From Shigella phage ESh15, in sequence record ON528725: a stretch of DNA of 64,000 nucleotides. One strand, given 5' to 3'. Positions 5,938 to 63,176 of the stretch are shown in pieces. The notes beneath the pieces are model-generated. The model was not told where the DNA came from. It worked only from the letters and a program-made list of their open reading frames with translations, and made no database searches. How positions within the stretch are numbered: the first letter of the stretch is position 1; each line of letters starts with the position of its first letter. A program made the position numbers and the translations under genes.

Positions 5938-5977
5938 AGTGTTTTCCTTTTAGTAATAATTTATATTTATGCCAAAA

Positions 5978-9434: not shown

Positions 9435-9621
9435 GTTTTAACCCTTTAATAGGAGACAGCTCTTTACCCATACGTATGTCAGAAGTCCCATCAACCCATT
9501 GAACCGCATACGCTTCATTGATAATACCTGCGCTAGTTTTAAATTCATGGAGAACTTTAAAAATCATCCCAGGGATTCCAACACCTTTTAATTGGACTGT
9601 TTGTGCTATTAAAAATTTCAT
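9424..9621 (-). CDS. Hypothetical small protein
   Basis: 65 aa minus-strand ORF; early promoter cassette immediately upstream. Confidence 0.4.
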   Translation of the reverse strand: MKFLIAQTVQLKGVGIPGMIFKVLHEFKTSAGIINEAYAVQWVDGTSDIRMGKELSPIKGLKHVE

Positions 9622-9641
9622 ATTTTTCCACTTACTAAAGA

Positions 9642-9676
9642 AATCATTATACTCTAATCCATCCTTGGATGTAAAC
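9642..9676 (-). promoter_or_regulatory. T4-type early promoter cassette (GTTTAC -35, TATAAT-like -10)
   Basis: Minus strand reads GTTTACATCCAAGGATGGATTAGAGTATAATG; upstream of ORF 9424-9621. Confidence 0.55.
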
Positions 9677-10293
9677 TACTTAACGAAATTAATTTCTACC
9701 GGATGAACAACAGGTTGAGCAGTGATATATTGAGTAATTGCTTTCATGACTAGAGCTTCAGAACCAGGATTTTTCTCAACGAATTCACGTGCTTGGTTAT
9801 GAGCTTCAAGTTCACTTAGTAAACCGCTTCGTTGGCATCCACGGTCTTGAGTACCCTGTTCAGATAAAAAGACGACGATGTATTTTTCGTCATCATCATA
9901 CGGTTTAGACGGTTGAGCAAATGTTCCTTTACTTCCGAAAGGAGAGTTATGCCGCCACATATCACCGTGAGGAGTTTCAACCTTCGTGTATTCATGCGGT
10001 CCATTTTTCTTAGTTTCTTTCCATGGAACTTCATGGACCTTAGGGTTAGGACATTCAATAAAATGCTCATCTAAATCGGTAGAGAATATTAAAGTAAAAC
10101 AATTACTGAATTTACCAGCACCTGCCTGATAAATTTTACCTTCAGAAGTTCTAATTTCACAAACTGAGCCGGCATCAGTAACTTCTAAAACTTCAAAAGG
10201 CTCGATAAGGTCATATGAGAACATGTTTTTAAGGCGTGGAGTAATATCCCCATTTTTAAAATTCATTTTATAAAAAGTATTAACTTTAAACAT
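9676..10293 (-). CDS. Hypothetical protein, 205 aa
   Basis: Minus-strand ORF with RBS-like GAGGAA upstream; no recognisable motif. Confidence 0.5.
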   Translation of the reverse strand: MFKVNTFYKMNFKNGDITPRLKNMFSYDLIEPFEVLEVTDAGSVCEIRTSEGKIYQAGAGKFSNCFTLIFSTDLDEHFIECPNPKVHEVPWKETKKNGPHEYTKVETPHGDMWRHNSPFGSKGTFAQPSKPYDDDEKYIVVFLSEQGTQDRGCQRSGLLSELEAHNQAREFVEKNPGSEALVMKAITQYITAQPVVHPVEINFVK

Positions 10294-12684: not shown

Positions 12685-13255
12685 AAAAGTTTCGAATTTG
12701 TTCCCAATTCAGAGAACGAAGATTATTACGAGAGTACTGAATTACTTCAATACCAGCTTGTTTAAGAATGTCTGCCCAATTTTCAGGAGATCGGTCATAT
12801 AATTCTGCATATACAACCTTTTTAATACCTGACTGCGTAATAGCTTTAGTGCAATCAGGACACGGAGAAAGCGTCGTATATAACGTAGCACCTTCAATAG
12901 AATTACCTTTACGAGCTGCAAACAAAATTGCGTTCAGTTCCGCATGGATTTCGTTATTAGCAGACCATGCACTATGAGCGGCCCGGTGTTCTTTAGCCAA
13001 AACAAAATTATCGGCCCGTCCAAATGCTGTAGTGCCTTCTTTATGTCCAGCAACGATGACCGGACTTGGTTTATTCTTCAACCAGCCTTGTTCAGTAGCA
13101 TGGTCACAACAGTTTATACCACCTGAAGGAGAGCCATTATATCCAGTAGAGATAATGCGTCCATCTTTTTCAATGACTGCGCCAACTTTCCATGAACAAC
13201 ATTTTGATTCTTGAGAAATCAGATATGCAATCTGAAGGTATGTGCTAGCTTTCAT
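12674..13255 (-). CDS. cd: dCMP deaminase
   Basis: 193 aa, same as T4 Cd; zinc-binding deaminase motifs HAELNAI and SPCPDC. Confidence 0.9.
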   Translation of the reverse strand: MKASTYLQIAYLISQESKCCSWKVGAVIEKDGRIISTGYNGSPSGGINCCDHATEQGWLKNKPSPVIVAGHKEGTTAFGRADNFVLAKEHRAAHSAWSANNEIHAELNAILFAARKGNSIEGATLYTTLSPCPDCTKAITQSGIKKVVYAELYDRSPENWADILKQAGIEVIQYSRNNLRSLNWEQIRNFCGE

Positions 13256-14247
13256 TATTGAACCTTATTAATATAAGTTAACAGCTCTTTAGTTTGTTCC
13301 CAACTGATGCACGCATCGGTAATGGAAACGCCATAGGACATATTATCAGAAATTTTTTGATTTCCTTCATGTAGGAACGATTCTATCATAATTCCTTTGA
13401 CCAAATCATTAGCTGCTAAATTTTTACCAATACCAATTTGATTGCTATAATGCCCATCAGCGTTTGCATGGCTACAGTCAACCATTACATAATGATTCAG
13501 ACCTACTGCCCTTGCTTTGTTAGAAGCTTCTTGAATATCAGAAGAATGATAGTTTGGGCCATTGGTCCCACCACGCAATACGATATGCGTATTCTGATTA
13601 CCTTCAGCTTCAACAATGCCTACAGTACCATCGACGTCCATACCCATATACCGATGAGGCCAGGCGGCACTATACATCGCGTCTGTAGCTACTTTAATAG
13701 AACCATTGGTTGCGTTCTTAAAGCCTACGCACATCGGTAGACCTGAAGCAATTTCACGATGTGTCTGACTTTCAGTCGTACGGGCGCCAATAGCAACCCA
13801 TGAGAAAATACCAGAAAGATACTTAATCGTGAATGGGTCTAATACTTCAGTTGCTAATGGAAGTCCCATACGTAGAAGTTTACGACACAATGTTCGTGCA
13901 ACTATAAGACCGTGGTTCATATCAAAACTTCCGTCAAGATATGGATCATTTACAAGACCTTTCCAACCTACGGTAGTTCGAGGCTTTTCAAAATAAACGC
14001 GCATCACTAACAGAACATTAGGAAGACGAGTTTGAAGTTCAGCCAGACGTTTGCCGTATTCAACAGCAGCAATAGGGTCATGAATTGAACAAGGACCTAC
14101 AACAATAAGTTTGCGTGGGTCTTCACCGTTCATAATCGAATTAACTTGTTCGCGATGAGAAGCCACTTGTGATGCGTAAGCTTCCGACAAAGGAATAATC
14201 TCAGCCAGTTCTTTTGGAGAAATAAGTTTTCCGACGACAGGTAACAT
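13255..14247 (-). CDS. 3-deoxy-D-arabino-heptulosonate-7-phosphate (DAHP) synthase, class I-alpha, AroG/AroF/AroH-like
   Basis: 330 aa; conserved blocks LIVVGPCSIHD, EKPRTTVGWKG, IGARTTESQ, VLRGGTNGPNY, VDCSHAN, IESFLHEGNQ, SITDACISWE match E. coli AroG; stop overlaps the cd start (TAATG). Confidence 0.85.
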   Translation of the reverse strand: MLPVVGKLISPKELAEIIPLSEAYASQVASHREQVNSIMNGEDPRKLIVVGPCSIHDPIAAVEYGKRLAELQTRLPNVLLVMRVYFEKPRTTVGWKGLVNDPYLDGSFDMNHGLIVARTLCRKLLRMGLPLATEVLDPFTIKYLSGIFSWVAIGARTTESQTHREIASGLPMCVGFKNATNGSIKVATDAMYSAAWPHRYMGMDVDGTVGIVEAEGNQNTHIVLRGGTNGPNYHSSDIQEASNKARAVGLNHYVMVDCSHANADGHYSNQIGIGKNLAANDLVKGIMIESFLHEGNQKISDNMSYGVSITDACISWEQTKELLTYINKVQ

Positions 14248-17293: not shown

Positions 17294-17646
17294 TCTGAGA
17301 GCTTCCTGAGGTCTTCTGCAAAGGAATCAAAGGACCTGTTGATTTGTTTTTCGACCAATCCTGGCTTACTTGCCACCACGTTCTTCTTCTTCGAATCCTG
17401 ACGGAGCTTTTCATTTTCGGCCTTAAGTTGGTCAACTAAAACACGGTTCTTATAAGTCATTTCTTCGATTGACTGATATTGAACTTTGAAGTCGTCTAAT
17501 ACTTTAGCATTGTTTTTAGCAGTCTCTTTAACAGAAGCCAATTCAGTATTCAACGAATCAACTTTGTTGTTTAAGACAACTATTGTTACAGTAGAAACTA
17601 GAGCAAAAGCTGCTACTATAGCGTAAATCGGATTTACTTTAAGCAT
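17290..17646 (-). CDS. Inner-membrane spanin-like protein (i-spanin, pseT.3-position)
   Basis: N-terminal transmembrane segment followed by charged coiled-coil-like region, 118 aa; paired with the lipoprotein. Confidence 0.6.
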   Translation of the reverse strand: MLKVNPIYAIVAAFALVSTVTIVVLNNKVDSLNTELASVKETAKNNAKVLDDFKVQYQSIEEMTYKNRVLVDQLKAENEKLRQDSKKKNVVASKPGLVEKQINRSFDSFAEDLRKLSE

Positions 17647-18134
17647 GTTTTAATAATCTCAATGATTTCATCTCGGGACAATCCATTGATAAGAACGGTT
17701 TTCAAACCATCACACTGGATTTTGTACGATTCAAACAATACACACAACTCTTCTGCTGTATGATATGGACTTGAGATTCCGAGGCGGTTGAATTTGTCGG
17801 TAAGAGGGTCACAAATAATGTAGAATTTTATACCTGCGATATGTACGTTGGGTTGACTAATATTAATGAACACATTAGCATCATATTTAGTCAAATTGTT
17901 TTGAAGAAATTCTACCATAGCATTAACTGCTTCTGGCATCGCTTCGCGTTTCTCTTCAGCATATCGGGTTGAATATTCCTTTTGCTTTAACTTCTTTTTA
18001 GCATTTTTCGCTAGAGTAGTACGAAGGTCCGTAAGATAACCAACTGGACGGCCTTTCTTAAAGACCTGGATTCCATCTGTAGAATCACCAAATGCTGCCA
18101 CAACCATATCGTTAGTAATCAATTGCATATTCAT
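17634..18134 (-). CDS. Putative Alc-like protein (host transcription shut-off); start set at internal ATG (MNMQL)
   Basis: About 166 aa from the ATG with GGAGAAAA RBS (T4 Alc 167 aa); position between spanins and RNA ligase 1; no sequence comparison possible here. Confidence 0.45.
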   Translation of the reverse strand: MNMQLITNDMVVAAFGDSTDGIQVFKKGRPVGYLTDLRTTLAKNAKKKLKQKEYSTRYAEEKREAMPEAVNAMVEFLQNNLTKYDANVFINISQPNVHIAGIKFYIICDPLTDKFNRLGISSPYHTAEELCVLFESYKIQCDGLKTVLINGLSRDEIIEIIKTCLK

Positions 18135-23645: not shown

Positions 23646-25341
<1,696 letters not shown>

Positions 25342-25481
25342 TTTATTCTCCTTAACAAGCTTTAATCAAAAGATATAAACAAACTAACATAACCACTGCC
25401 ATAATATAAGGTGCTAACATTTTGATTTCCTCTCATTTGTTTTGATAGGACTACTATAACATAGCCCTATCTTGTTGTATA

Positions 25482-25871
25482 CTACTTTTTAAAAGTTTTT
25501 TGCAAAAGTTCGATGATTTCGTCGACGTTAGTTTCATCTACTACACAATGAATTTTTGTTACACCTAAAACTATGCCTTCGTTAACCGGTTGAGGCTTTT
25601 CTAAAGTTACCTCGTTGAAGTATTTGAATTCTTCAGGGTAAAGTTCAAAATATGTCTCTTCCGGACCACCAGCAGAACATTCTGTGCCATCTTCCATGGT
25701 TACACATACTACGTTTAGGCATCCATCATAATCATGTTCCATTCCATTTACAACAAAACTTGGACCATGCTTCTCAAGCAAATCTAGCATAAAGCCGTTA
25801 TTGTACGGGGCCTCTTCGATGAATTCATCTTTAAATAAAGGGTTAAAGATATAAGTTTTTCCGATTTCCAT
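25482..25871 (-). CDS. Hypothetical protein, tandem paralogue A
   Basis: 129 aa; shares GKTYI, DLLE/DLIELHGPSFVV, TMEDGTE/TMQDGTE and YFELY blocks with the adjacent ORF. Confidence 0.5.
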   Translation of the reverse strand: MEIGKTYIFNPLFKDEFIEEAPYNNGFMLDLLEKHGPSFVVNGMEHDYDGCLNVVCVTMEDGTECSAGGPEETYFELYPEEFKYFNEVTLEKPQPVNEGIVLGVTKIHCVVDETNVDEIIELLQKTFKK

Positions 25872-28050: not shown

Positions 28051-28385
28051 AATAAGAAATCTAACGTATTAGTTTTTTCACCACGAGCAACTGATGGGCG
28101 AAGCATGTTTTCGTCAATTGCTTCACTTGTAATTTTTTCAACAATTCCTGTAGGAATAAATTTAGCGAATTGTGTTTCTGGAATAGAATTTTCTTCCAAG
28201 AAAGCAGTTGTTGCTTCTAAATAAGACATACCAAATTGTTCAACCATGGATTCGATAATGAACCCGTTTTCTTGACGGTCAAGCAATTTAGCGATATCAT
28301 CTTTATCATGTTTTACTGCTAATTCTTGTTCAGATAAACCGGCCTCATCAACCGGTTTAATATCACTTAGTGAAAACTGTGTCAT
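28047..28385 (-). CDS. 33: Late transcription co-activator gp33
   Basis: 112 aa, same as T4 gp33; position between 59 and dsbA. Confidence 0.8.
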   Translation of the reverse strand: MTQFSLSDIKPVDEAGLSEQELAVKHDKDDIAKLLDRQENGFIIESMVEQFGMSYLEATTAFLEENSIPETQFAKFIPTGIVEKITSEAIDENMLRPSVARGEKTNTLDFLL

Positions 28386-28632
28386 AAAGCTCGACTACCT
28401 CTTCGTTTTCAGCTTCAAATTGGTCACGAGCATCTTTATGATAAAGAGCTAACAAACGATTAAACATTTTTCCATCAACGCCAAGCTCTTCTTTAGCACG
28501 AGTACGAATGTCTTTAATCAGTTCATTATAACCAGAAATTTTAAGTTTGTTATCGGAAGCTTCCTTGACTAGTTTAGCCAGTTCTTCACCATGCACATCT
28601 TGATTAAATTCAACTGCTTCTTTCTTAGCCAT
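28363..28632 (-). CDS. dsbA: dsDNA-binding protein DsbA (late transcription enhancer)
   Basis: 89 aa from internal ATG (MAKKEAVEF), same size as T4 DsbA; position between rnh and 33. Confidence 0.7.
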   Translation of the reverse strand: MAKKEAVEFNQDVHGEELAKLVKEASDNKLKISGYNELIKDIRTRAKEELGVDGKMFNRLLALYHKDARDQFEAENEEVVELYDTVFTK

Positions 28633-28639
28633 GTTTACC

Positions 28640-29557
28640 TCAGAATTCATTAATTACACTTGTTAATTTAGAAAGACCAGATTTTACAAAGTATGAATAA
28701 ATCTTGCCTTTAGGTTGTTGTTTATATGAGTTATAATACTCTATAATGGTTGAAGCAATATTATCAGGGATATAATCAAAATCAATGAGAACCAAATTTT
28801 CTTGGTACCGTTTATATTCTTCTGCACTTAATAATACTTTAGCTTGAGAACGGTCATTAGCAATTGCTTCAATAATCGTTGTTTTCATGCTCGGAGTTCG
28901 TTCACCTTCAACTCGAGTAAACCAGAAATCACCACGAACTCGAACAGACGCAACACCATCCTTACGGTCGCCTTTAAGAATTTTAGTCATGCAATCAATT
29001 TCAGCAGAACCGTTCTTAATTTTAACCCATTTTTTCTGTGGTGGCGACCACTGTTTAACGTTAGGATATTTGTGTAATTGTGTAAAGTCACCATCTGATG
29101 CAACAATACATACCTTATGACCAGCTAATGACAAATATTTAGTTAATACACCAATATGGTCATCCGCTTCATACTTGTCAATATCCATTACAACGTATGG
29201 CATGTATTTCTTAATCTCATCAACAACTTGATGGAGTGCAGTAAAATATCCTTCCCAATCCCACTTTGAAGCTTCACGATCGGTTTTACGATTTTTCTTA
29301 TAATAGTAAGCAAAGTCACGTCGCCAATAACCTGAAGTAGCATTATCCATACACAATACAAATTTTGTATAGCCTTGCTTACGGAACATCACTACGTTTT
29401 TACGAATTGAATTCAAGATTACATGCCGAACCATTGGAACAGTAATTTTATCGCCGTCTTCAAAGTTGTTTAATGCGGCGGCCAATGCAATGTTACTAAA
29501 GTCGGCAAGTGCAATACCTTCTTTGTAATCTTCATCCAACATCATTTCTAAATCCAT
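28640..29557 (-). CDS. rnh: RNase H / 5'-3' exonuclease (flap endonuclease family)
   Basis: 305 aa, same as T4 RNase H; position before the tail-fibre operon. Confidence 0.9.
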   Translation of the reverse strand: MDLEMMLDEDYKEGIALADFSNIALAAALNNFEDGDKITVPMVRHVILNSIRKNVVMFRKQGYTKFVLCMDNATSGYWRRDFAYYYKKNRKTDREASKWDWEGYFTALHQVVDEIKKYMPYVVMDIDKYEADDHIGVLTKYLSLAGHKVCIVASDGDFTQLHKYPNVKQWSPPQKKWVKIKNGSAEIDCMTKILKGDRKDGVASVRVRGDFWFTRVEGERTPSMKTTIIEAIANDRSQAKVLLSAEEYKRYQENLVLIDFDYIPDNIASTIIEYYNSYKQQPKGKIYSYFVKSGLSKLTSVINEF

Positions 29558-29584
29558 ATGAACCTCTTGTTCAGTTAGTCAACT

Positions 29585-29619
29585 TGACTATAGTAACACA
29601 CTCATTTGAAAGCGTAAAC
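29585..29619 (-). promoter_or_regulatory. Early promoter candidate upstream of rnh
   Basis: GTTTAC on minus strand about 55 nt upstream of the rnh start, back-to-back with the gene 34 late promoter. Confidence 0.45.
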
Positions 29620-29622
29620 TGG

Positions 29623-29630
29623 TATAAATA
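29623..29630 (+). promoter_or_regulatory. Late promoter TATAAATA for gene 34
   Basis: Exact TATAAATA about 30 nt upstream of the gp34 start. Confidence 0.7.
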
Positions 29631-29660
29631 AGTATTATTGAAACAATAAAGGAAAAACGA

Positions 29661-32600
29661 ATGGCCGACATCAAACGTAAGTTCAGAGCCGAAGACGGTC
29701 TGGACGCCGGTGGCGACAAGATTGTTAACGTAGCATTAGCCGACCGTACAGTAGGTACTGATGGCGTAAACGTTGACTTCCTTGTACAAGAAAACACCGT
29801 TCAAGTATATGATTCTACGCGTGGATATAACAAAGGATTTGTTGTTCTTTATGACAACCGTTTATATCAAGCAATAAATGATATCGTGTCTCCTTCCGGG
29901 GCATTTAACCTTTTACAATGGCGTGCAGTTCGTACTGATGCACAATGGATAACTGTAGCTTCTGGGGCTTATCAACTTTCTTCAGGTGAATCGATTTCGG
30001 TTAACACTGGTGCCGGCAATGATATGGTTTTCACGTTGCCAAATACTCCGGTTGATGGTGATACTGTTGTTTTGGCTGATATTGGTGGACGAACCGGGAC
30101 AGTTAAAGTACAGATTAACGCGTCTGTACAGAGTATTTTAAACTTTAGAGGTGAACAAGTTCGTACAGTTTTAATGACGCGCCCACGTTCACAACTATTG
30201 TTTGTGTTTAGTAATCGTTTGTGGCAGATGTATATTACCGATTATGGTAAAGAATCAATCACTGTTACACCTGCGACACCATATCAAGCACAAGCAAATG
30301 ATTTTATCGTTCGTCGTTTTACTAGTGCAGCACCAATCAACATTACACTTCCACGTAATGCTAACAATGGTGATATAATCAGCCTAGTCGATTTAGATAG
30401 ATTAAACCCACTGTATCATACATTTGTTAAAACATTTGATGATACAACGTCTATTGGTGAAGTCGGGACTCATATTGCCGAAGGCAGAAATGACTCTGAC
30501 GCGTTTTTTGTTTTTGATGCTGCAAATAGTTTATGGCGTATATGGGAAGGAGACCAGAAATCGCGTCTTCGTATTATCCGTGCGGATTCAAATATTCGAC
30601 CAAATGAAGAAGTTCTTATTTTTGGCACAAATAACGCTACACACGGAACTATTAATCTTACGCTGCCTTCCGGAATTTTGAGCGGTGACACTGTTAAAAT
30701 TTCAATGAACTACATGCGTAAAGGCCAAACGGTAAAAATTAAAGCTGCCGAAGGTGATACAATTGCTTCTTCTGTCGCATTACTTCAGTTCCCTAAACGT
30801 TCTGAATATCCACCTGATGCTCAATGGGTCTCTGTTACTGAACTAGAATTCAATGGTACTACTTCATATGTTCCTGTATTAGAATTAGCGTATATCGAAG
30901 ACACCGTTGCTGGTACACGCTATTGGGTTGTTCAACAAAACGTCCCAACTGTAGAACGTGTCGATGCTGGAACTGATACAACTAGAGCTCGTGTAGGTGT
31001 TATTGCTCTTGCAACTCAGGCACAGGCAAATGTTGATTTTGAAAATTCTCCGGCTAAAGAAGTTGCTATTACTCCGGAAACATTGGCAAATCGTACAGCA
31101 ACTGAAGCTAGACGTGGTATCGCTAAAATTGCTACAACAGCACAAGTTAACCAGAATTCCACAGCATCATTTGTGGACGATACTATTGTTACGCCTAAAA
31201 AACTAAATGAGCGTACAGCAACTGAAACTCGTCGTGGTCTTGCTGAAATTGCTACTCAGGTTGAAACCGATGCTGGTCTTGATGACACAACGATTATTAC
31301 ACCTAAGAAATTACAGGCACGTCAGGGTTCTGAAACACTATCTGGTATAGTTAAATATGTATCAACTACTTCTGCTACTCCTGCTGAAACTCGTGGGGCC
31401 GCAGGCACTAATGTTTATAATAAAACCGTAAATAATTTAACTATTTCTCCTAAAGCCCTTGACCAATATAAAGCAACTTATGCTCAACAAGGTGCAGTAA
31501 TTTTAGCTGTTGATAGTGAAGTAATTGCTGGTCAATCTCAAGCAGGTTATTCTCATGCTGTAGTAACTCCTGAAACACTACATAAGAAAACTTCTACTGA
31601 TGGACGTATTGGTTTAATTGAAATTGCTACGCAAGCAGAAACTAATGCTGGGACTGATTATACACGTGCAGTAACGCCTAAGACGTTAAATGATAGGAAA
31701 GCTACGGAAGGATTATCCGGCATAGCCGAAATTGCTACGCAAGTTGAATTTGATACTGGAACTGATGATACTCGTATCTCGACTCCACTGAAAATTAAAA
31801 CTCATTTTGATTCTTCTGACCGTACCAGTGTTAATTCTGATTCCGGACTTATTGAAGAAGGAACCTTGTGGAACCATTATACTCTTGATATTTCTAAAGC
31901 AAATGAAACACAACGTGGTACACTTCGCGTAGCGACCCAGGCAGAATCTAATGCAGGAACTTTAGATGATGTTCTTATTACTCCTAAAAAGCTTTTAGGG
32001 ACTAAGTCCACTGAAACGTCTGAAGGTGTAATTAAGGTTGCTACTCAGGCTGAAACTGTAACAGGAACTTCTACTAATACTGCTGTATCTCCTAAGAATT
32101 TAAAATGGATTGTCCAGAATGAACCAACATGGGCTGCTACCACAGCAATTCGTGGATTCGTTAAAACTTCATCCGGTTCTATTACATTTGTTGGTAATGA
32201 TACAGTCGGTTCAACGCAACCTTTAGAATCATATGAAAAAAATAGCTATGCTATATCTCCATATGAATTAAACCGTGTACTTGCTAACTATTTGCCATTA
32301 AAAGCAAAAGCTGCTGACGCAAATTTATTAGATGGTCTAGATTCATCTCAGTTCATTCGTAGGGATATTGCACAGACGGTTAATGGTTCACTAACCTTAA
32401 CCCAACAAACGAATCTGAGTGCCCCTCTTGTATCATCTAGTACTGCTACGTTTGGTGGTTCAGTTTCGGCAAATAGTACATTAACTATTTCTAATACCGG
32501 AACAGCTACTCGTCTGATTTTTGAGAAAGGACCTCAAACTGGAACTAACCCAGCGCAGACGATGAGTATCAGAGTTTGGGGAAATCAGTTTGGTGGCGGT

Positions 32601-33536
32601 TCAGATACAACACGTTCTACTGTATTTGAAGTTGGCGATGAAACGTCTAATCATTTTTATTCTCAACGTAATAAAGATGGGAATATAGCGTTTAGCATTA
32701 ATGGCACTGTAATGCCAATAAACATTAATGCTTCCGGCTTGATGAATGTGAATGGTGTTGCAACATTCGGCCGTTCAGTTACAGCCAATGGTGAATTCAT
32801 TAGCAAGTCTGCAAATGCTTTCAGAGCAATAAGTGGTGATTACGGATTCTTTATTCGTAATGATGCTGCTAATACCTATTTTATGCTTACTGCATCTGGT
32901 GATCAGACCGGTGGATTTAATGGATTACGTCCTTTGGCTATTAATAATGCATCTGGCCAAGTAACGATTGGTGAAAGCTTAATCATTGCTAAAGGTGCTA
33001 CTATAAATTCAGGTGGTTTAACTGTTAACTCGAGAATTCGTTCTCAGGGTTCTAAAACTGCTGATTTATACACTCGTGCTCCTACTGCTGATACAGTCGG
33101 ATTCTGGTCAATCGATATTAACGATTCAGCCACTTATAATCAGTTCCCGGGTTATTTTAAAATGGTTGAAAAAACTAATGAAGTGACTGGGCTTCCATAC
33201 TTAGAACGTGGTGAAGAAGTTAAATCTCCTGGTACATTGACTCAATTTGGTAATACGCTTGATTCTCTTTACCAAGATTGGATTACTTATCCAACGACAC
33301 CAGAAGCGCGTACCACTCGCTGGACACGTACATGGCAGAAAACCAAAAACTCATGGTCGAGTTTTGTTCAGGTATTTGATGGTGGAAACCCTCCTCAACC
33401 TTCTGATATTGGTGCTTTACCTTCCGATAATGCAACAATCGGAAACTTGACAATAAGGGATTTCTTAAGGATTGGTAATGTTCGCATTATTCCAGACCCT
33501 GTGAATAAATCTGTTAAATTCGAGTGGATTGAATAA
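29661..33536 (+). CDS. 34: Long tail fibre proximal subunit gp34
   Basis: 1291 aa (T4 gp34 1289 aa); N-terminus MADIKRKFRAEDGLDAGGDKI matches T4; TATAAATA late promoter about 30 nt upstream. Confidence 0.92.
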   Translation: MADIKRKFRAEDGLDAGGDKIVNVALADRTVGTDGVNVDFLVQENTVQVYDSTRGYNKGFVVLYDNRLYQAINDIVSPSGAFNLLQWRAVRTDAQWITVASGAYQLSSGESISVNTGAGNDMVFTLPNTPVDGDTVVLADIGGRTGTVKVQINASVQSILNFRGEQVRTVLMTRPRSQLLFVFSNRLWQMYITDYGKESITVTPATPYQAQANDFIVRRFTSAAPINITLPRNANNGDIISLVDLDRLNPLYHTFVKTFDDTTSIGEVGTHIAEGRNDSDAFFVFDAANSLWRIWEGDQKSRLRIIRADSNIRPNEEVLIFGTNNATHGTINLTLPSGILSGDTVKISMNYMRKGQTVKIKAAEGDTIASSVALLQFPKRSEYPPDAQWVSVTELEFNGTTSYVPVLELAYIEDTVAGTRYWVVQQNVPTVERVDAGTDTTRARVGVIALATQAQANVDFENSPAKEVAITPETLANRTATEARRGIAKIATTAQVNQNSTASFVDDTIVTPKKLNERTATETRRGLAEIATQVETDAGLDDTTIITPKKLQARQGSETLSGIVKYVSTTSATPAETRGAAGTNVYNKTVNNLTISPKALDQYKATYAQQGAVILAVDSEVIAGQSQAGYSHAVVTPETLHKKTSTDGRIGLIEIATQAETNAGTDYTRAVTPKTLNDRKATEGLSGIAEIATQVEFDTGTDDTRISTPLKIKTHFDSSDRTSVNSDSGLIEEGTLWNHYTLDISKANETQRGTLRVATQAESNAGTLDDVLITPKKLLGTKSTETSEGVIKVATQAETVTGTSTNTAVSPKNLKWIVQNEPTWAATTAIRGFVKTSSGSITFVGNDTVGSTQPLESYEKNSYAISPYELNRVLANYLPLKAKAADANLLDGLDSSQFIRRDIAQTVNGSLTLTQQTNLSAPLVSSSTATFGGSVSANSTLTISNTGTATRLIFEKGPQTGTNPAQTMSIRVWGNQFGGGSDTTRSTVFEVGDETSNHFYSQRNKDGNIAFSINGTVMPININASGLMNVNGVATFGRSVTANGEFISKSANAFRAISGDYGFFIRNDAANTYFMLTASGDQTGGFNGLRPLAINNASGQVTIGESLIIAKGATINSGGLTVNSRIRSQGSKTADLYTRAPTADTVGFWSIDINDSATYNQFPGYFKMVEKTNEVTGLPYLERGEEVKSPGTLTQFGNTLDSLYQDWITYPTTPEARTTRWTRTWQKTKNSWSSFVQVFDGGNPPQPSDIGALPSDNATIGNLTIRDFLRIGNVRIIPDPVNKSVKFEWIE

Positions 33537-47794: not shown

Positions 47795-50008
47795 TTATTT
47801 GGCCGCTTCTACGGCCTTCATGAATTTAACGATTTGAGCGACCTGTTCTTTAGAAAGAGTACCACGTCGTCCCATGTATTCTGACACAATATGATAATTG
47901 GTTTCGAATTCAATAACCATTTTATCATCATTATCGTAAGCATTATCTTTAAGCTTATCGAAAATTTTAGCACACAATTCTAACTTCCTGTTAAGGTCTC
48001 TGTTATCAGCACCTGCGAATCGATTCCATCCCCAACGATTATTTACTGTTGAGAGTTTTGCAAAATCTTTACTGATTTCTTTGTTTTTAGAGCTAAAATA
48101 CTTACTAAGGAAGTTAAGCTCTTCATTACGAGTAATATGATTCAAATAAGGTTGAGCTCTACGACTTGGTGATACATACTCATCATAATCCACTTTATCG
48201 ATTAGCGTAATATAGTCATTAATTGATTTTTCGAACAAGCATTCTACTTCACCAAGTTTACGAACTTTCTTAGCAATCTGTGGACGAACTACAGTGAACT
48301 CTTTAATACCTGACAAATCAGCAATACGAGTCAAGAAATTGGAGTCATAGTTCAACCAACCTTTATCTGCATCAAGACATTCAGCATTAGAACGATTACG
48401 AACTATAGCATAACCTTGGATTTCATCTGCTTCACTCGCCGGAATAAAGAGGTCTTCTGATACCCAAACATTGTTTTCATTCTTAAAGAATCGATGAGCA
48501 CTTGGCGATTTAGGACGAGGCTCATTAGTCCGTTTCCTGACTTCAATCCATGGCTTAACGATTTGTAAAAGCTCTGAAGTCTTGTACATGTTAATGTTGT
48601 CGCCATCAAAGATAACTTTAAGGCGTTCCAGAAGTTTCATTGCATCTTCGTCTGTAGGGTCAACGAATAGTACGCTTTTACCAAAACCGCGTGGAACTTT
48701 ACCAGTTAATTTAACCTCGTCTTTAGACATTTCAATTGAATTAAGAGCTCGCATTAATGGAACGCGTCCCTTAACGTCGTCAATAACAATTTCAACATTT
48801 TTAATGTTAATGCCAATCAGACTGTTAATTGAAATGGTTGCCGTTGAGCTACCGCTTTCACGAATACGACGAAGACGAGGGGATTCAACGATATCGTATA
48901 CGACACCAAGATTACACCACTCAGGCCCCATTTTAAAACGTTTATACAACTCAGAATAAGTTAGTTGTTCTTTAGAGTATTTCAGTGATTCAATATTAGA
49001 CCCGGCCTTTTCCATGTATTTACGAGCGGTATAGCCAAGAGAATCAATTTCACGGAACACATGACGTGGGTATTTACAATCAATCCATTTCTTAGAATCT
49101 TCAGCGAACAATTTAGCATCGATTTCTGCAACGCGTTTATGGATATTTGCTACTGTACGTTTATCAAATGACAATGCTTCACGAGACGGAGCTACATCTA
49201 GTTCACCCATAGGGAATTTAATATAAGCTGTAGTGCATCGTGTCATCATCCATGTTTGTTCTTTAATAACACTTCCGATTGGATATACAATACCGCCATA
49301 AACAGCCATGATATTACCACGTTCACCCCATGGAGCTTCCTTGGCCAAATATACATCGTCAAATTCAGGGAAGTATTTAATATCTTTAACACCACGAACT
49401 TCTGCAATATCACCTAGAGGACGCATAACATATGCAATTTCGGATGCGAACTTTTCAAAATCTTCTGGGTTAACCGGTACAACTACTTCTACACCTGTAC
49501 GGTCGTCAGGACCCATCTTATCTACAAAGGTCGGCTTAATTTGTGGACCTGTGTCATCTTGGTAGATTACGTAACCACGAACTTCACCGTTGTGATAAGA
49601 CGTAAGGTTAAACGTATCGGTATATGCTAGCGGAGCTTTAGAACCGAGTCCGAATCCACCAATGAAATCGTTACTAGATGTTTTAGTTGAAGCAAAATAT
49701 GAGTTATAGATTCCTGGCTCTTCGTCATTACCTCTAATGGTGAAATCGCTCATACCAGGACCAAAGTCTCGAACTACAAAGCGTGGGTCTAAACGACCTG
49801 GAGCCTGAACAATAAACTTATCAGTGCAACCATTAAGAATTTGTCCATCAATACAGTTTGTGATTAATTCACGTACACAAGCCAATTCTTTGTTTGTATA
49901 AAGGTCATTAGACAAAATCTTATAAACTTTGCTATTGCCTTGAATAGTGAATGCTGTGCTCTTACCGCCTGAACCAATAATCGTTTCTTTAGACGTTTCA
50001 ATAATCAT
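47795..50008 (-). CDS. rIIA: rIIA protein
   Basis: 737 aa (T4 rIIA 725 aa); GHKL-type ATPase-like N-terminal region; adjacent to rIIB. Confidence 0.9.
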   Translation of the reverse strand: MIIETSKETIIGSGGKSTAFTIQGNSKVYKILSNDLYTNKELACVRELITNCIDGQILNGCTDKFIVQAPGRLDPRFVVRDFGPGMSDFTIRGNDEEPGIYNSYFASTKTSSNDFIGGFGLGSKAPLAYTDTFNLTSYHNGEVRGYVIYQDDTGPQIKPTFVDKMGPDDRTGVEVVVPVNPEDFEKFASEIAYVMRPLGDIAEVRGVKDIKYFPEFDDVYLAKEAPWGERGNIMAVYGGIVYPIGSVIKEQTWMMTRCTTAYIKFPMGELDVAPSREALSFDKRTVANIHKRVAEIDAKLFAEDSKKWIDCKYPRHVFREIDSLGYTARKYMEKAGSNIESLKYSKEQLTYSELYKRFKMGPEWCNLGVVYDIVESPRLRRIRESGSSTATISINSLIGINIKNVEIVIDDVKGRVPLMRALNSIEMSKDEVKLTGKVPRGFGKSVLFVDPTDEDAMKLLERLKVIFDGDNINMYKTSELLQIVKPWIEVRKRTNEPRPKSPSAHRFFKNENNVWVSEDLFIPASEADEIQGYAIVRNRSNAECLDADKGWLNYDSNFLTRIADLSGIKEFTVVRPQIAKKVRKLGEVECLFEKSINDYITLIDKVDYDEYVSPSRRAQPYLNHITRNEELNFLSKYFSSKNKEISKDFAKLSTVNNRWGWNRFAGADNRDLNRKLELCAKIFDKLKDNAYDNDDKMVIEFETNYHIVSEYMGRRGTLSKEQVAQIVKFMKAVEAAK

Positions 50009-50020: not shown

Positions 50021-50221
50021 TCACAAGTTACGTTTAAAAATTTCTGCTACTTCAAGAAGTTCTTCTTTAGTAGCTGTATCGGTTTGTATTTTATATCGAA
50101 TTTCTTTAAAGCGTTCTTTAAAGGACTCTGCTGACTCGATATCAAAAAATCTTTGGATAAGCCGGAATTCCCGGAGTACTGCTTTATCAAAAAGTTCCAA
50201 GTCCACGTTATATGTTCTCAT
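50021..50221 (-). CDS. Hypothetical small protein (rIIA.1-position)
   Basis: 66 aa minus-strand ORF upstream of rIIA. Confidence 0.45.
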   Translation of the reverse strand: MRTYNVDLELFDKAVLREFRLIQRFFDIESAESFKERFKEIRYKIQTDTATKEELLEVAEIFKRNL

Positions 50222-50313
50222 AATATTCTCTTCAGTAGATTCCTAGGGCACTATTACTAAAGACCATATAATCTATCATCTTATGTGTAATAGTGCCTCA
50301 GGCTATTCAGGAT

Positions 50314-51414
50314 TTACGCTGTGAAGATTTTATCCCACATCGCAACAACTGCATCTCGGTTATACTTCTTCCATACGGCTTCAGCACGTTTAACTCGAGC
50401 TTCGTATGTGTCAGTGAATTCTAATACAGCTTTTGTGTAAAGCGCAACTACTTCTTTCTTAGGAGTAGAGGAATCAATTTCTACACGCACAGTATCTGGG
50501 TCATATTCGAATGTCGCGTGCGGATAATCCTTAAAAACTAACTGAATCACAGGTACACCTTTAGAGATGGCTTCAATAGAACTATTCTCTACCGTACCCG
50601 TGTCAGGACACGTATTGATAAGTGCTTTAGCTGTTTTAAGACGTTCCATAATTTCACTGTGTGGAGCATCAATAATAACAGGATACTTGGCCGGTGGTGC
50701 CCATTTGCTTGGACAGTATCCTGCGCCATTTTCGCCTAATGCTTTAATCGCTTCAAGAGCAACATCAGTACGACGCATCTTAGTGTCATAACGTTGAGCA
50801 CTAATAATCAAATCAGTTGCTGGAAGAACTTCAGGTTTCTCATTCAAACAAATAACCGGATAATCTTCGGCTTCAAACAACGGATTTGCTCGCCAATAAT
50901 CATAATCAATTTTGTCAGTCAGTCCTGAAGTCATATAACAATATTTGCGTTCAAATTCACGGAAGGCTTTAGTAGGAGCATAACTCTTACCACCGTTCTT
51001 ATGAATTTGAATAGTCTGGTCCCAAATTTGAACAATGCCACGAGATACCGGTTCAAATGGTGTCGCCATAAAATTCTTATGAACTTTAGAGAGACCTGCG
51101 TCTTTAATTGCCTGAACGGTTAGTTTGGTCGGTTCCATTGTAACAACGAAATCGTACTCATTGATGCCGGCTAGTTCAACAATCTTACGAGCCATAGTAT
51201 AACTCATACCTAGACTGAATTTAGTCAGATGACCAACAGGATGATGATTAACCTTCCAGTCACCAAACGTGTCATTATCAAAACCGATATAATCAATATC
51301 AGCACCGATGGACACAAGATATTTCAATACATTTAAATGTACTGCTTCAAGACCACCTTGTACACGTTCAGGATTAAATGGGACTGCACGAGATGGGATA
51401 AACATAACTTTCAT
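50314..51414 (-). CDS. GT-B fold (GT4-like) glycosyltransferase, candidate DNA sugar-modification enzyme
   Basis: 366 aa; N-terminal Rossmann-like start with GGLE motif (MKVMFIPSRAVPFNPERVQGGLEAV) and C-terminal donor-binding-like block (GTVENSSIEAISKGVPVIQ) typical of retaining GT-B transferases. Confidence 0.6.
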   Translation of the reverse strand: MKVMFIPSRAVPFNPERVQGGLEAVHLNVLKYLVSIGADIDYIGFDNDTFGDWKVNHHPVGHLTKFSLGMSYTMARKIVELAGINEYDFVVTMEPTKLTVQAIKDAGLSKVHKNFMATPFEPVSRGIVQIWDQTIQIHKNGGKSYAPTKAFREFERKYCYMTSGLTDKIDYDYWRANPLFEAEDYPVICLNEKPEVLPATDLIISAQRYDTKMRRTDVALEAIKALGENGAGYCPSKWAPPAKYPVIIDAPHSEIMERLKTAKALINTCPDTGTVENSSIEAISKGVPVIQLVFKDYPHATFEYDPDTVRVEIDSSTPKKEVVALYTKAVLEFTDTYEARVKRAEAVWKKYNRDAVVAMWDKIFTA

Positions 51415-51441
51415 AATTAAGCCTTATTAAAATTAAAATGA

Positions 51442-51457
51442 AGCTCCCGAAGGAGCT
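51442..51457 (-). terminator. Hairpin terminator at the 3' end of gene 39
   Basis: AGCTCC-CGAA-GGAGCT followed by a U-rich tract in the minus-strand transcript. Confidence 0.55.
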
Positions 51458-53274
51458 TAGGACATCCATTCTTTACGAAGTTCTGAATCATCACCCATCA
51501 ACATTTCAAAGAGTTCTTTCCAATTTTCAGGAAGTTTAACTACGTCGTACACAGGGTTCTGAATCATTTCACGATATTCTGACTTTTCAAGGGAGCCTAA
51601 TCCCTTGATGTATCGAATACTATGCTTAGGCAGCGTATCTTTAGCTTCTTCGTACTCAGCTACAGTATAAAACCATTTTTGAGTTTTGCCGATTTGTGCA
51701 ATAATTACAGGTGTTTTAACAAAGCGAATACGTCCTTGTTCAAACAATTCAGGCCAATTACTAAAGAAAGCAAGCAAAGCCGGATAGATACTTCCAAGAC
51801 CGTCATGATCGGCATCGGTCATAATTGCAATATTACGATAGTTCGTATTCTCTGCTTTTTCACCAAGAATAAGACCTGTGATAGCACAGATATCAAAGAG
51901 CTCTTTGTTCTTCATCATATCAGCATATGACATACCCCAGCTATTCATCACCTTACCACGTAATGGGAATCCGCCATGTAGTTCACGGTCACGAACATCA
52001 ATGAGATATCCAATTGCCGAATCACCTTCTGTTAAGAACAATGTCGTATCTGCGTCTTTACCGCATTGGTTAGCTTTAATATGCTTATGAACCTTAGCTT
52101 TAGTGGCCTTTTTAGCTGCTTTAGTTTCTGCAGCCTTTTCTGCTGCCAATTTACGAGCTAATGCTGCTTCAACAATAGGCATAATCAAGGCTTCGTTTTT
52201 AAGAAGTGCCTGAGCAATTTTCTTAGCATCTAATTGGATATGATTACGAATATCACCATATGTTGACGTTAAACGTTCTTTAGTCTGAGAATCAAAACGC
52301 ATGTTACTCATGTCTCTAATAAACATCAACATTGTGAGGCATTCTTTAACACGAGCTTTAGTGACTTCAATACCCTTATATTTCTTTTTAATACCTGGCA
52401 AAAGATGTTCGCAGATATCGTCCATTACACATTCAACATGATGTCCACCATTTTTAGTATGGATGTTATTCACATAAGTTAAATGACGGAAGCCATCTGG
52501 TGATGTTGTGAATGCTATAGAGACTTTATCATTTTCTTGAATGATGTTATCTTCACCAAATTGTTTAGCAAATCGTTTAAAATTACCATCAACCTTTTTA
52601 CCATTAAATGTGAACTTGATATCAGGATAAACGACTGCCAATGTTTGAAGTCGGTCTAAAGTAATATCTAAATAAATTTGAGATAAATTATGCTCTTCAA
52701 ATGAAGAGAAATCAGGAGTGAAGATTACTTTAGTGCCTTTACCTTTAGATTTCTTAGAAGACCATGATTTGTTTTCCATTCCGTTTGAACAGTTAACAGT
52801 GATTTCATTTTCGCCATCTGACGTGATGCCTGTAAACAACGTAGAGAAGATATTAGTTAAACTACTCCCGACGCCGTTCATACCACCAGTCTTGCGTTCA
52901 GAGTCATCACCAAAGTTACCACCGGCCTTTGGAATAGTCCAGGCTGCTACAGGCCCAGGAATTTGTTCACCTGTTTGGTCGGTAACTAAACCTTGAGGAA
53001 TACCACGTCCGTTATCTTCCACAGAAACTTGATTATTTTTAATTTGCACATCAATTTTATTTGCAAACTTAAATGATGTACGAATAGCTTCATCAACCGA
53101 GTTGTCAATAATCTCATCGATTAATTTAACCAGACCAGGAACATATTCAACTTGTTGATATTTACCAAACAAAAAACGCTCATGTGCTTCTTTGGCCGAA
53201 GAACCAATATACATACCACTACGTTTCTTAATATGTTCTACATCCGACAATACCTTAATTTCATTTTTAATCAT
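51457..53274 (-). CDS. 39: DNA topoisomerase II large subunit gp39, unsplit (includes the gene-60-equivalent C-terminal part)
   Basis: 605 aa (T4 gp39 plus gp60 about 516+160 aa); GyrB ATPase and TOPRIM motifs; no bypass element or split. Confidence 0.92.
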   Translation of the reverse strand: MIKNEIKVLSDVEHIKKRSGMYIGSSAKEAHERFLFGKYQQVEYVPGLVKLIDEIIDNSVDEAIRTSFKFANKIDVQIKNNQVSVEDNGRGIPQGLVTDQTGEQIPGPVAAWTIPKAGGNFGDDSERKTGGMNGVGSSLTNIFSTLFTGITSDGENEITVNCSNGMENKSWSSKKSKGKGTKVIFTPDFSSFEEHNLSQIYLDITLDRLQTLAVVYPDIKFTFNGKKVDGNFKRFAKQFGEDNIIQENDKVSIAFTTSPDGFRHLTYVNNIHTKNGGHHVECVMDDICEHLLPGIKKKYKGIEVTKARVKECLTMLMFIRDMSNMRFDSQTKERLTSTYGDIRNHIQLDAKKIAQALLKNEALIMPIVEAALARKLAAEKAAETKAAKKATKAKVHKHIKANQCGKDADTTLFLTEGDSAIGYLIDVRDRELHGGFPLRGKVMNSWGMSYADMMKNKELFDICAITGLILGEKAENTNYRNIAIMTDADHDGLGSIYPALLAFFSNWPELFEQGRIRFVKTPVIIAQIGKTQKWFYTVAEYEEAKDTLPKHSIRYIKGLGSLEKSEYREMIQNPVYDVVKLPENWKELFEMLMGDDSELRKEWMS

Positions 53275-62654: not shown

Positions 62655-63176
62655 TTAGTAACCATTATCCTGACGTTCAAAGTTGTGTTGGTTTTTCAAG
62701 TAATACAGTTTAAAGATTTCTTCAGCCGAAAGACCTAGACCTTGGAACATATTCAGAACAAAGTGGAGGATATCAATCATCTCGAATTTAATTTCAAGCT
62801 GGTCTTCAGGAGACAGTTCATCGATACGTCGATTTCGATATTCAGCATGTTGTGCTTTCCAAGGCTTCCATACACTGCTGGCGGCTTTTTCACCATTGCT
62901 CATACCACCAAGTGAAGTCAGCAGTTCACGGAATTCATCATCAATATAATCTTTCTGATTACGCAGCCAATCAACAACATCACCAGCAGTAGCCAATTCA
63001 TCAGGATGTTTGTTATGTTCAGGCTTGTCATTTGCCAGACGAACCTGTAAAGATTTCTGCATATCAAGCATAACTTGCAGTGGGTCTTTATCTTCGTGAA
63101 TCAGAGCATTAAAATAAGCTTCTTCTGCTTTATCAACACCAGAAATAAGTTGTGAACATTCGTTAAAGTGTGCCAT
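62655..63176 (-). CDS. 56: dCTPase/dUTPase gp56 (MazG-like dCTP pyrophosphatase)
   Basis: 173 aa from internal ATG (MAHFNEC), T4 gp56 171 aa; long near-identical stretches (DKDPLQVMLDMQ, TAGDVV.W.R.QKD.IDDEFRELLTSLG, SPEDQLEIKFE, HFVLNMF.GLG, EEIFKLYYLKN). Confidence 0.88.
   Translation of the reverse strand: MAHFNECSQLISGVDKAEEAYFNALIHEDKDPLQVMLDMQKSLQVRLANDKPEHNKHPDELATAGDVVDWLRNQKDYIDDEFRELLTSLGGMSNGEKAASSVWKPWKAQHAEYRNRRIDELSPEDQLEIKFEMIDILHFVLNMFQGLGLSAEEIFKLYYLKNQHNFERQDNGY

Follow-up and report, generated by a model that had tools for sequence, protein, structure and literature searches.

A putative chain-extending DNA arabinosyltransferase gene beside topoisomerase gene 39 in the RB69-like Shigella phage ESh15

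Two studies from 2026 (Lee et al., PMC13326640; the Readshaw group, PMC13390438) describe the DNA of Mosigvirus phages as containing mono- and di-arabinofuranosyl-5-hydroxycytosine, not hydroxymethylcytosine (hmC), the sugar being joined to C5 of cytosine by a direct ether bond. RB69 DNA carries beta-D-Araf-3-alpha-D-Araf-5hodC plus the mono form (PMC13326640), while in Mosigvirus NP the mono and di forms occur at a ratio of 1:4 (PMC13390438). The gp42-like enzyme of the genus is a flavin-dependent 5hodCMP synthase (PMC13326640; PMC13390438). As for the transferases, Thomas et al. (2018) proposed ORF003c as the RB69 arabinosyltransferase based on HMM/HHpred comparisons, and the same protein, gp3, has since been assigned as “beta-arabinosyltransferase 2”, explicitly as a proposal (PMC13326640, Lee et al. 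2026). In the Acinetobacter phage DLP3, gp76 and gp77 act jointly in vitro, using UDP-Araf to attach a third Araf to RB69 DNA, and single DLP3 transferases are inactive alone (PMC13326640). We found no demonstration of direct activity for RB69 gp3 or its orthologs in the accessible literature.

The DNA analyzed here (the window) is a 64-kb stretch of Shigella phage ESh15 (ON528725). The source phage is a Mosigvirus of the RB69-like kind; the entire window is colinear with RB69, and it represents a distinct isolate with about 94–96% DNA identity to RB69 and CAU_ECP01. It encodes a transferase identical at 363 of 366 residues to RB69 ORF003c/gp3 (NP_861693.1) in the same synteny. The CAU_ECP01 protein is 100% identical (DNA identity between these phages is ~96%), and the “phage HY126 glycosyltransferase”, whose apo (PDB 9IQZ) and UDP-bound (9IR0) structures were released in 2025, is 98% identical over 366 aa. 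By sequence, the gene is an ortholog of both RB69 ORF003c/gp3 and the crystallized HY126 glycosyltransferase, and the UDP complex of the latter (9IR0, 98% identity) predicts that the ESh15 protein binds a UDP-sugar donor.

The initial annotation of this DNA had recognized a DNA-modifying sugar transferase with a GT-B fold, and that part of its reading stands. The base it named does not, the acceptor it named probably does not, and the gene is not new: it is RB69 ORF003c, put forward for this kind of role in 2018. The transferase is thus already known, and our analysis adds nothing to the literature of 2018–2026. Its practical value is in annotation: the gene is unrecognized by Pfam, NCBIfam, and PADLOC models, most GenBank records label it “hypothetical protein” and a few “DNA alpha-glucosyltransferase”, and adjacent pathway genes are often mislabeled as dCMP hydroxymethylase.

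Table 1. Features of the ESh15 window discussed in the text
Feature	Position	Strand	Evidence
Putative DNA arabinosyltransferase CDS (second-sugar enzyme), 366 aa	50314..51414	-	ORF, RB69 gp3 orthology, PHROG 8302, GT-B fold, pN/pS
Gene 39, unsplit topoisomerase II large subunit, 605 aa	51457..53274	-	Pfam DNA_gyraseB, HATPase_c, Toprim; synteny with RB69p004
rIIA.1, 66 aa, directly downstream of the transferase gene	50021..50221	-	PF24210 T4_RIIA1, E=2.1e-30; synteny with RB69p002/p001
rIIA, after rIIA.1	47795..50008	-	Synteny with RB69p002/p001
Terminator-like hairpin between gene 39 stop and transferase start	51441..51458	-	Pattern scan
Long RNA hairpin in the 92-nt gap between transferase gene and rIIA.1	about 50242..50302	-	Minimum free energy (MFE), dinucleotide shuffles
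gp56 dCTPase, pathway partner	62655..63176	-	tblastn with RB69 gp56, 97% over 173 aa
cd	12761-13255		RB69 comparison
alc	17637-18128		RB69 comparison

The 366-aa frame is real. It starts with ATG, and AAGG, a plausible Shine-Dalgarno sequence, lies ~7 nt 5' of the start codon. The gene differs from that of RB69 by 44 nucleotides and 3 amino acids and from that of CAU_ECP01 by 24 nucleotides and 0 amino acids, giving pN/pS values of 0.00–0.04 in these two comparisons. The transferase gene is under strong purifying selection and is clearly no chance ORF.

When the ORFs were compared with the RB69 annotation, the Mosigvirus order rIIA, rIIA.1, glycosyltransferase, gene 39 was found (Table 1). The gene indeed lies between gene 39 and rIIA, as first described, except that the small rIIA.1 had been overlooked. 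Gene 39, directly upstream, is the fused form of 39 and 60, as in RB69. T4 has no transferase at this locus, the T4 slot being filled by genes 60, 60.1, and mobA, and its a-gt and b-gt are located elsewhere in the genome. The locus can therefore be called non-canonical with respect to T4 only; within Mosigvirus, it is a fixed position in ~155 genomes.

Hairpins flank the gene on both sides. The one overlapping the gene 39 stop has a 7-bp stem, a UUCG tetraloop, and a U-rich tail; the pattern scan would be expected to return one such site by chance in a 1.8-kb region, and the record of phage SA79RD annotates the same element as a rho-independent terminator. The downstream hairpin consists of an 11-bp perfect stem (GGCACUAUUAC/GUAAUAGUGCC) plus extensions, with an MFE of -28.6 kcal/mol (z = -4.4 relative to dinucleotide shuffles) and no U tract. 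A search of the 42-nt gap upstream of the transferase gene for a dedicated promoter found no promoter-like site. The hairpin-bounded context proposed for the gene is thus present, but it does not establish a transcription unit of its own.

Both motifs by which the protein had been recognized as a glycosyltransferase are present. GGLE (G20-G21-L22-E23) follows the N-terminal beta-strand MKVMFIP, and the C-terminal half contains the block G273-T-V-E276-N-S-S-I-E281-A-I-S-K-G-V-P-V-I290. In an alignment of six family members, with identities down to 41%, nearly all residues of the two are invariant, including E281, which corresponds to the second Glu of the E-x7-E motif. The motif itself, typical of retaining GT4 enzymes, is absent: a Gly occurs 8 residues before E281, and E276-x4-E281 is found instead. 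No Pfam family, including Glyco_transf_4 and Glycos_transf_1, matched the transferase at E<=1, nor did any NCBIfam or PADLOC model at that threshold. PHROG 8302 matched over residues 1-366 (E=1.6e-222) and is labeled “unknown function”.

Profile searching and fold prediction nevertheless point to GT-B architecture, with bacterial GT4-type enzymes as neighbors. The family profile aligns end to end with the GT4 protein P0015 (93% probability, E=3.4e-7), which is itself Pfam-positive (PF13439, 31.9 bits, above the 28.5 cut-off), so the GT4 link is only transitive. The AlphaFold2 model, of moderate confidence and built on a shallow alignment (pLDDT 62, with N-domain residues 115-188 below 50), shows alternating strands and helices in both halves, in agreement with the GT-B plan of a cleft between two Rossmann-like domains. 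Foldseek returned 207 PDB matches at E<=1e-3, led by PimA, WaaG, BshA, and tll1591, and the top ones are all GT-B. Describing the protein as “retaining GT4-like”, as had been done, goes too far, given the missing Pfam GT4 match, the E-x4-E in place of E-x7-E, and the beta linkage assigned in RB69. Membership of the T4 alpha- or beta-glucosyltransferase families is rejected, as hhalign gave no signal against either (probability 0.2%).

Hydroxymethylcytosine was the base first suggested as the target, based on gp56, cd, and alc. All three are encoded in the window at 95–97% identity to RB69; as all three occur in hmC and 5hoC phages alike, they do not imply hmC. The accompanying idea of a non-glucose sugar fares better, since the DNA sugar pathway uses arabinose rather than glucose, although on 5-hydroxycytosine. 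That the transferase attaches such a sugar to hmC DNA, in line with the arabinosyl-hmC reported for RB69 in 2018 (Thomas et al. 2018) and with the T4-like presence of gp56, cd, and alc, is hardly credible. Tandem mass spectrometry, NMR, and 18O2 labeling identify 5-hydroxycytosine (fragment m/z 128.05, not 142.06), and RB69 gp48 produces 5hodCMP (PMC13326640). The independent work on Mosigvirus NP agrees and calls the hmC assignment erroneous (PMC13390438), and the thymidylate synthase homolog of a close relative is 98.7% identical to RB69 gp48. For the genus Mosigvirus, arabinosyl-hmC is refuted by the chemistry of RB69 and NP.

The transferase is probably the chain-extending DNA arabinosyltransferase of Mosigvirus, which adds the second Araf. 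In the proposed pathway, gp56 would convert dCTP to dCMP; it is listed as a pathway member in Table 1 of PMC13326640, removing dCTP and supplying dCMP for the 5hodCMP synthase. The thymidylate-synthase-like flavoenzyme corresponding to RB69 gp48 would then form 5-hydroxy-dCMP, to be phosphorylated and incorporated instead of C. UDP-D-arabinofuranose would be made by a phage arabinose-5-phosphate isomerase, bifunctional kinase/pyrophosphorylase, and HAD phosphatase, and a first transferase of the RB69 gp46:47 family would place alpha-D-Araf onto the 5-OH. The two-Rossmann-domain GT-B enzyme described here, with UDP in its inter-domain cleft, would transfer a second D-Araf onto O3 of the first, yielding beta-D-Araf-(1->3)-alpha-D-Araf-O5-dC, the dominant modified base in Mosigvirus virion DNA. 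That this particular enzyme makes the second addition, which donor anomer it uses, and how it catalyzes the transfer are all inferred.

The 64-kb window contains no 5hodCMP synthase, first transferase, or sugar-nucleotide genes. RB69 synteny places these remaining pathway genes 7–14 kb beyond its right edge, with the ara/5hoC cluster expected between uvsX and gene 43, and in the nearest relatives, LF82-41 and CAU_ECP01, the cluster is complete, at 98–99% identity to RB69. Synteny thus predicts that ESh15 encodes the rest of the pathway.

The distribution of the two transferase families agrees with the gp3 family (PHROG 8302) acting as a chain extender. The first-transferase family occurs in 348 phage records from many genera, including the mono-arabinosylated Thanatos-1. 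The gp3 family is found only in Mosigvirus (one copy; ~155 records at 95–100% protein identity) and in Acinetobacter phages (two copies, both inside the ara/5hoC cluster in phage Lazarus). A word-indexed homolog search returned only 5 clusters, an exhaustive HMM search of 1.84 billion representatives only 12 matches, of which 2 were marginal, and a scan of IMG/VR the same Mosigvirus and Acinetobacter phage genomes, with no new lineage or context. The arabinose chain comprises one sugar in Thanatos-1, two in Mosigvirus, and three in Acinetobacter phages; with 0, 1, and 2 gp3-family copies, respectively, chain length equals copy number plus one. A defense or anti-defense protein unrelated to DNA sugars was rejected on distribution and context.

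These data also bear on where the sugar is attached. Thomas et al. (2018) selected ORF003c as the best RB69 glycosyltransferase candidate by HMM/HHpred, which would fit a base-proximal enzyme, the first or only one, transferring arabinose directly onto the modified cytosine. We consider this unlikely: all arabinosylating lineages have the RB69 gp46:47 family next to the 5hodCMP synthase, and it is the sole family in Thanatos-1, which is mono-arabinosylated, in Dhakavirus, and in Klebsiella, Serratia, and Proteus phages, from all of which the gp3 family is absent. Moreover, gp3 paralogs act on DNA that is already arabinosylated (PMC13326640). In 2018, a frameshifted annotation (p046/p047) hid RB69's other transferase. 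In place of the direct attachment to the base initially assumed, the paralogs and the distribution make extension of the chain from the first arabinofuranose the most likely role.

A “second-sugar enzyme” may be too simple a description if the transferase works only in complex with the first transferase, or if the two are interchangeable or cooperative. DLP3 gp76 and gp77 are active only together, none of the DLP3 transferases acted on 5hoC DNA by itself (PMC13326640), and the sequence is listed as four chains (e.g., chain H) across 9IQZ and 9IR0 taken together, hinting at several copies per entry. We regard such an arrangement as improbable for Mosigvirus, where the transferase gene lies 21 kb from that of the first transferase and is conserved separately. 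As Mosigvirus has a single gp3-family member, pairing of the gp76/gp77 type cannot apply as such.

It is very unlikely that the link to DNA arabinosylation is coincidental and that the acceptor is something other than DNA, whether LPS or a lipid of the host envelope, a protein, or a small molecule. Among the nearest structural relatives are the LPS and lipid glycosyltransferases WaaB, WaaG, PimA, and PimB', and the Mosigvirus gene is surrounded by early genes at a distance from the ara cluster. However, the family occurs solely in phages that, where tested, have poly-arabinosylated DNA; in Acinetobacter phages, its genes are part of the ara cluster, and the paralogs of the transferase modify DNA in vitro (PMC13326640).

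The assignment as a second-sugar transferase is not entirely clean, in that the closest structural neighbors are retaining GT4 enzymes and the linkage of the assigned product is beta. Tentatively, the transferase could be a mechanistic outlier, in which a GT4-like GT-B scaffold without the first Glu of E-x7-E, lost in this family, makes a beta (1,2-cis) arabinofuranosidic linkage with a sugar that duplex DNA already carries; we hold this possible but doubtful. Were UDP-alpha-D-Araf the phage donor, the reaction would be inverting, on a fold with only retaining enzymes as its nearest relatives. As a corollary, the presence and copy number of the gp3 family would set arabinose chain length, and hence defense sensitivity, across the Straboviridae, which predicts mono-arabinosylation in Dhakavirus, such as JS98, and in those Klebsiella (including Marfavirus), Proteus, and Yersinia phages with the first transferase only.

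Which restriction enzymes, CRISPR systems, DNA glycosylases, and type IV nucleases can attack a phage depends in part on how long the arabinose chains on its cytosines are. MluCI cuts RB69 DNA partially and tri-arabinosylated DLP3 DNA not at all; BrxU cuts arabinosylated DNA, and CMoRE acts weakly against Bas46 and Bas47. As Mosigviruses are often considered for therapy and biocontrol, it is useful to know which gene sets the di-arabinosyl state.

Among known systems, RB69 gp3 and the HY126 glycosyltransferase are the closest to the ESh15 protein, sharing 99% and 98% identity over 366 aa, the locus, the genus, and PHROG 8302; the 3 and 7 substitutions, respectively, are conservative and nothing of substance. 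DLP3 gp76 and gp77 (equivalent to Lazarus_072/073 and Acj61 p076/p077) belong to the same family, with 41–43% identity end to end and the invariant GGLE, CPSKWAP, and TGTVEN-S-EAIS-G-PV motifs. They differ in being a tandem pair with 57% mutual identity, produced by a duplication in the Acinetobacter phage lineage, and their genes lie inside the ara/5hoC cluster, whereas the Mosigvirus gene adjoins gene 39. Acting jointly, gp76 and gp77 produce a tri-arabinoside whose third sugar is beta-1,5-linked. As the paralogs are closer to each other than to the ESh15 protein, function cannot be transferred one to one.

The RB69 gp46:47/DLP3 gp79 family has in common with the transferase the pathway, the expected donor, and a fold reported as GT-B-like (PMC13326640), yet BLASTP detects no similarity between their sequences (E>5). 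Its members are ~300 aa long, are always encoded beside the 5hodCMP synthase, and form an alpha linkage to the base. T4 alpha-GT (GT72) and beta-GT (GT63) are likewise phage GT-B enzymes that transfer a UDP-sugar to hydroxylated cytosine in dsDNA after replication, with the same biological purpose of evading restriction and CRISPR. They differ in using glucose, in their acceptor, the hmC hydroxyl instead of a sugar hydroxyl, and in their loci. The bacterial GT4-type enzymes (PimA/PimB', WaaB/WaaG, BshA, and tll1591) share the two-Rossmann GT-B fold, UDP- or GDP-sugar donors, and the C-terminal nucleotide-binding block with its conserved ribose-binding Glu (E281 in the transferase). Identity to them is 11–14%, and the transferase is without the first Glu of E-x7-E; whereas they are retaining, its assigned linkage is beta and its putative acceptor is a glycosylated DNA base.

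The 366-residue protein encoded between gene 39 and rIIA.1 is best supported as the Mosigvirus chain-extending DNA arabinosyltransferase, a UDP-binding GT-B enzyme (putative activity) that would add a second D-arabinofuranose (Araf) to alpha-D-Araf-5-hydroxycytosine in phage DNA. It matches RB69 ORF003c (gp3; RB69p003, NP_861693.1) at 363 of 366 residues and in equivalent position, and is 98% identical to PDB entries 9IQZ ("phage HY126 glycosyltransferase") and 9IR0 ("with UDP"), both released 2025-07-16. ORF calling returned exactly the frame described in the initial annotation, with an AAGG ribosome-binding site close 5' of its start. The gene had been placed between gene 39 and rIIA, which is correct on the gene 39 side, while rIIA.1 intervenes on the other. 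RB69 and the entire 64-kb window are colinear (window 47795 is RB69 position 1; the window end is RB69 16795), and DNA of the region is 97–98% identical to that of about 150 Mosigvirus (RB69-like) phages. The transferase gene differs from that of RB69 at 44 nucleotides and 3 amino acids, and from that of the close relative CAU_ECP01 at 24 nucleotides and no amino acid; pN/pS is 0.00–0.04 in four comparisons, and the ORF is subject to strong purifying selection.

Features of the window discussed in the text
Feature	Position	Strand	Remarks
Transferase ORF	50314..51414	-	366 aa, ATG start
Gene 39	51457..53274		gyrase-B, HATPase and Toprim Pfam domains
rIIA.1	50021..50221		small gene; PF24210, E=2e-30
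rIIA	47795..50008		next after rIIA.1
gp56	62658-63176		
cd	12761-13255		
alc	17637-18128		
Gene 39 hairpin	51441-51458		pattern scan; 7-bp stem, UUCG loop, U-rich tail; overlaps gene 39 stop codon
Long hairpin	~50242-50302	-	11-bp perfect stem; -28.6 kcal/mol, z = -4.4; no U tract
DAHP synthase ORF	13255-14247	-	330 aa; class I, PF00793, E=4e-75; directly downstream of cd
Segment without RB69 counterpart	9438-10286		849 bp
ORF in 849-bp segment	9676-10293	-	205 aa; no Pfam match
Tail-fibre region	32457-33213 and 35642-39077		genes 34 to 38 by synteny

Pfam, NCBIfam, and PADLOC scans of the protein gave no match at E<=1, and PHROGs assigns it to family 8302, labelled "unknown function". The AlphaFold2 model was built on a shallow family alignment and is of moderate quality (mean pLDDT 62), with a C-terminal domain at about 80–90 and residues 115–188 poor. 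The remaining structural-search matches are solely GT4-type GT-B proteins (PimA, WaaG, BshA, tll1591, SenB, WaaB, PimB', and GlgM). A distant metagenomic relative, P0015, exceeds the Pfam Glyco_transf_4 threshold; its end-to-end alignment to the family profile (93% probability) thereby links the window family to GT4 transitively by sequence. The initial annotation was right about the GT-B fold class. Its narrower GT4-like label agrees with the structural matches and the P0015 link, but not with the lack of a direct Pfam match or with the E-x7-E motif, which is not intact: the ribose-binding Glu, E281, is conserved, but a Gly stands eight residues before it, and E276 is the other conserved Glu. 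Both motifs quoted for the protein, GGLE (residues 20–23) and GTVENSSIEAISKGVPVI (residues 273–290), are present, and nearly every position in them is invariant in a family alignment whose members are just 41–44% identical.

Thomas et al. (2018, PMC6024577) detected arabinose in RB69 DNA and, as HMM and HHpred searches matched ORF003c (366 residues) to GT-B enzymes, put it forward as the arabinosyltransferase. Lee et al. (2026, PMC13326640) revised the base from hydroxymethylcytosine (hmC) to 5-hydroxycytosine (5hoC), with 5hodCMP produced by the thymidylate-synthase (TS) homolog RB69 gp48, and described alpha-D-Araf-O5-dC and beta-D-Araf-(1->3)-alpha-D-Araf-O5-dC in RB69, as well as a third, beta-1,5-linked Araf in Acinetobacter phage DLP3. 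RB69 gp46:47, one ORF split by sequencing error, is their proposed first transferase and gp3 their proposed "beta-arabinosyltransferase 2"; in vitro, DLP3 gp76 and gp77 jointly, neither alone, put the third arabinose on RB69 DNA from UDP-Araf (PMC13326640). Mono- and di-arabinosylated cytidine stand at 1:4 in Mosigvirus NP (2026 AEM paper, PMC13390438). According to citing papers, Bas46 and Bas47 are reported to be doubly arabinosylated and an Aat deletion to have a phenotype (Mahler et al., Cell Host Microbe 2025), and the HY126 structures and the Afh gene names evidently come from He et al. (Nat Chem Biol 2026).

The window protein very probably belongs to the DNA arabinosylation pathway, as a glycosyltransferase, and the general role first suggested, a DNA sugar transferase with arabinose mentioned, agrees with ORF003c/gp3 and with arabinosylated Mosigvirus DNA. 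The hmC base that had been inferred is the wrong one; 5hoC is reported for RB69 (PMC13326640). Although gp56, cd, and alc are all encoded in the window, as claimed, they are common to hmC and 5hoC phages and cannot tell the two bases apart. The proposed acceptor, the modified base itself, is probably wrong; addition of the second sugar is favoured, gp3 being the proposed "beta-arabinosyltransferase 2" (PMC13326640).

A tblastn search of 50,697 phage records found the window protein in 211: Acinetobacter phages, which have two copies, and otherwise only Mosigvirus-type coliphages or Shigella phages, each with a single copy. One of these records is named "Tegunavirus" and two DNA-match records "Yersinia", which may be Mosigvirus-like phages under another name or true occurrences in other genera. 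Just 12 clusters came up when 1.84 billion representatives were searched exhaustively by HMM, and an IMG/VR scan added nothing to the occurrences already found. The first-transferase family, queried with the 299-aa ortholog of gp46:47 from the close relative LF82-41, occurs in 348 phage records, spanning Mosigvirus, Dhakavirus, and Klebsiella, Enterobacter, Serratia, Proteus, Yersinia, Edwardsiella, and Acinetobacter phages, as well as Shewanella phage Thanatos-1. From the two record counts, the window family is therefore missing from all remaining first-transferase genera, including mono-arabinosylated Thanatos-1. The number of window-family copies plus one equals the measured arabinose chain length: one in Thanatos-1, two in RB69 and NP, and three in DLP3. 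We consider it likely that the window protein specifically adds the second sugar.

Acinetobacter phage Lazarus has its two copies within the modification cluster (Lazarus record L003, 9001-11296), beside a kinase-like gene, the first transferase, the TS homolog, a phosphatase, a pyrophosphorylase/kinase, and an arabinose-5-P isomerase; the Mosigvirus gene lies 21 kb from its cluster. The Acinetobacter copies are closer to each other (57% identity) than to the window protein (41–43%), which indicates a lineage-specific duplication. The window protein is co-orthologous to both, and the literature pairing of gp3 with gp77 is only marginally backed by sequence.

The 5hodCMP synthase, first transferase, and isomerase were not found within the 64-kb window; synteny predicts them 7–14 kb beyond its right edge. 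LF82-41 and CAU_ECP01 carry all three at 98–99% identity to RB69. The RB69 reference record (L001) splits the first transferase (p046/p047, 24597-25497) and the kinase/pyrophosphorylase (p052/p053, 28094-29780), each of which is one ORF in LF82-41 and CAU_ECP01 (299 and 561 aa, respectively); this fits the sequencing errors that PMC13326640 describes. Pathway annotations are misleading in records including CAU_ECP01 (5761-7376), HX01, and Lazarus: public labels include "deoxycytidylate 5-hydroxymethyltransferase" or "thymidylate synthase" for the 5hodCMP synthase homolog, "RNA polymerase binding protein" for the first arabinosyltransferase, and "hypothetical protein" or "DNA alpha-glucosyltransferase" for window-gene orthologs.

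The initial annotation had also given the gene its own hairpin-bounded transcription context. Hairpins do flank it on both sides, but no sigma-70-like promoter was found in the 42-nt gap upstream, and read-through from promoters farther upstream, early or middle, is as likely as an independent unit. The annotation of phage SA79RD gives the gene 39 hairpin as a rho-independent terminator; about one such site is expected by chance in the region, so the scan alone is weak evidence. The long, unusually stable hairpin occupies the 92-nt gap between the transferase gene and rIIA.1. SA79RD has a T4-type middle promoter annotated within rIIA.1, not in this gap.

Elsewhere in the window, the DAHP synthase gene lies in a 1.1-kb segment missing from RB69 and may be an auxiliary metabolic gene using erythrose-4-P and PEP. 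It occurs in 212 phage records by tblastn, about 139 of them Mosigvirus-type, with further carriers among Klebsiella, Proteus, Serratia, Edwardsiella, and some Acinetobacter phages, a host range overlapping that of arabinosylating phages. RB69 lacks it yet is di-arabinosylated, so it is not required for modification. The tail-fibre segments have absent or 74–87% DNA matches to RB69 and CAU_ECP01; the distal fibre/adhesin part is the window's most divergent stretch, as expected of a host-range determinant.

The gene, treated in the initial annotation as new, is RB69 ORF003c, already published (PMC6024577); the finding is real and ordinary for Mosigvirus. As was correctly stated there, T4 differs: its equivalent slot holds genes 60, 60.1, and mobA and no transferase, and its a-gt and b-gt map elsewhere.
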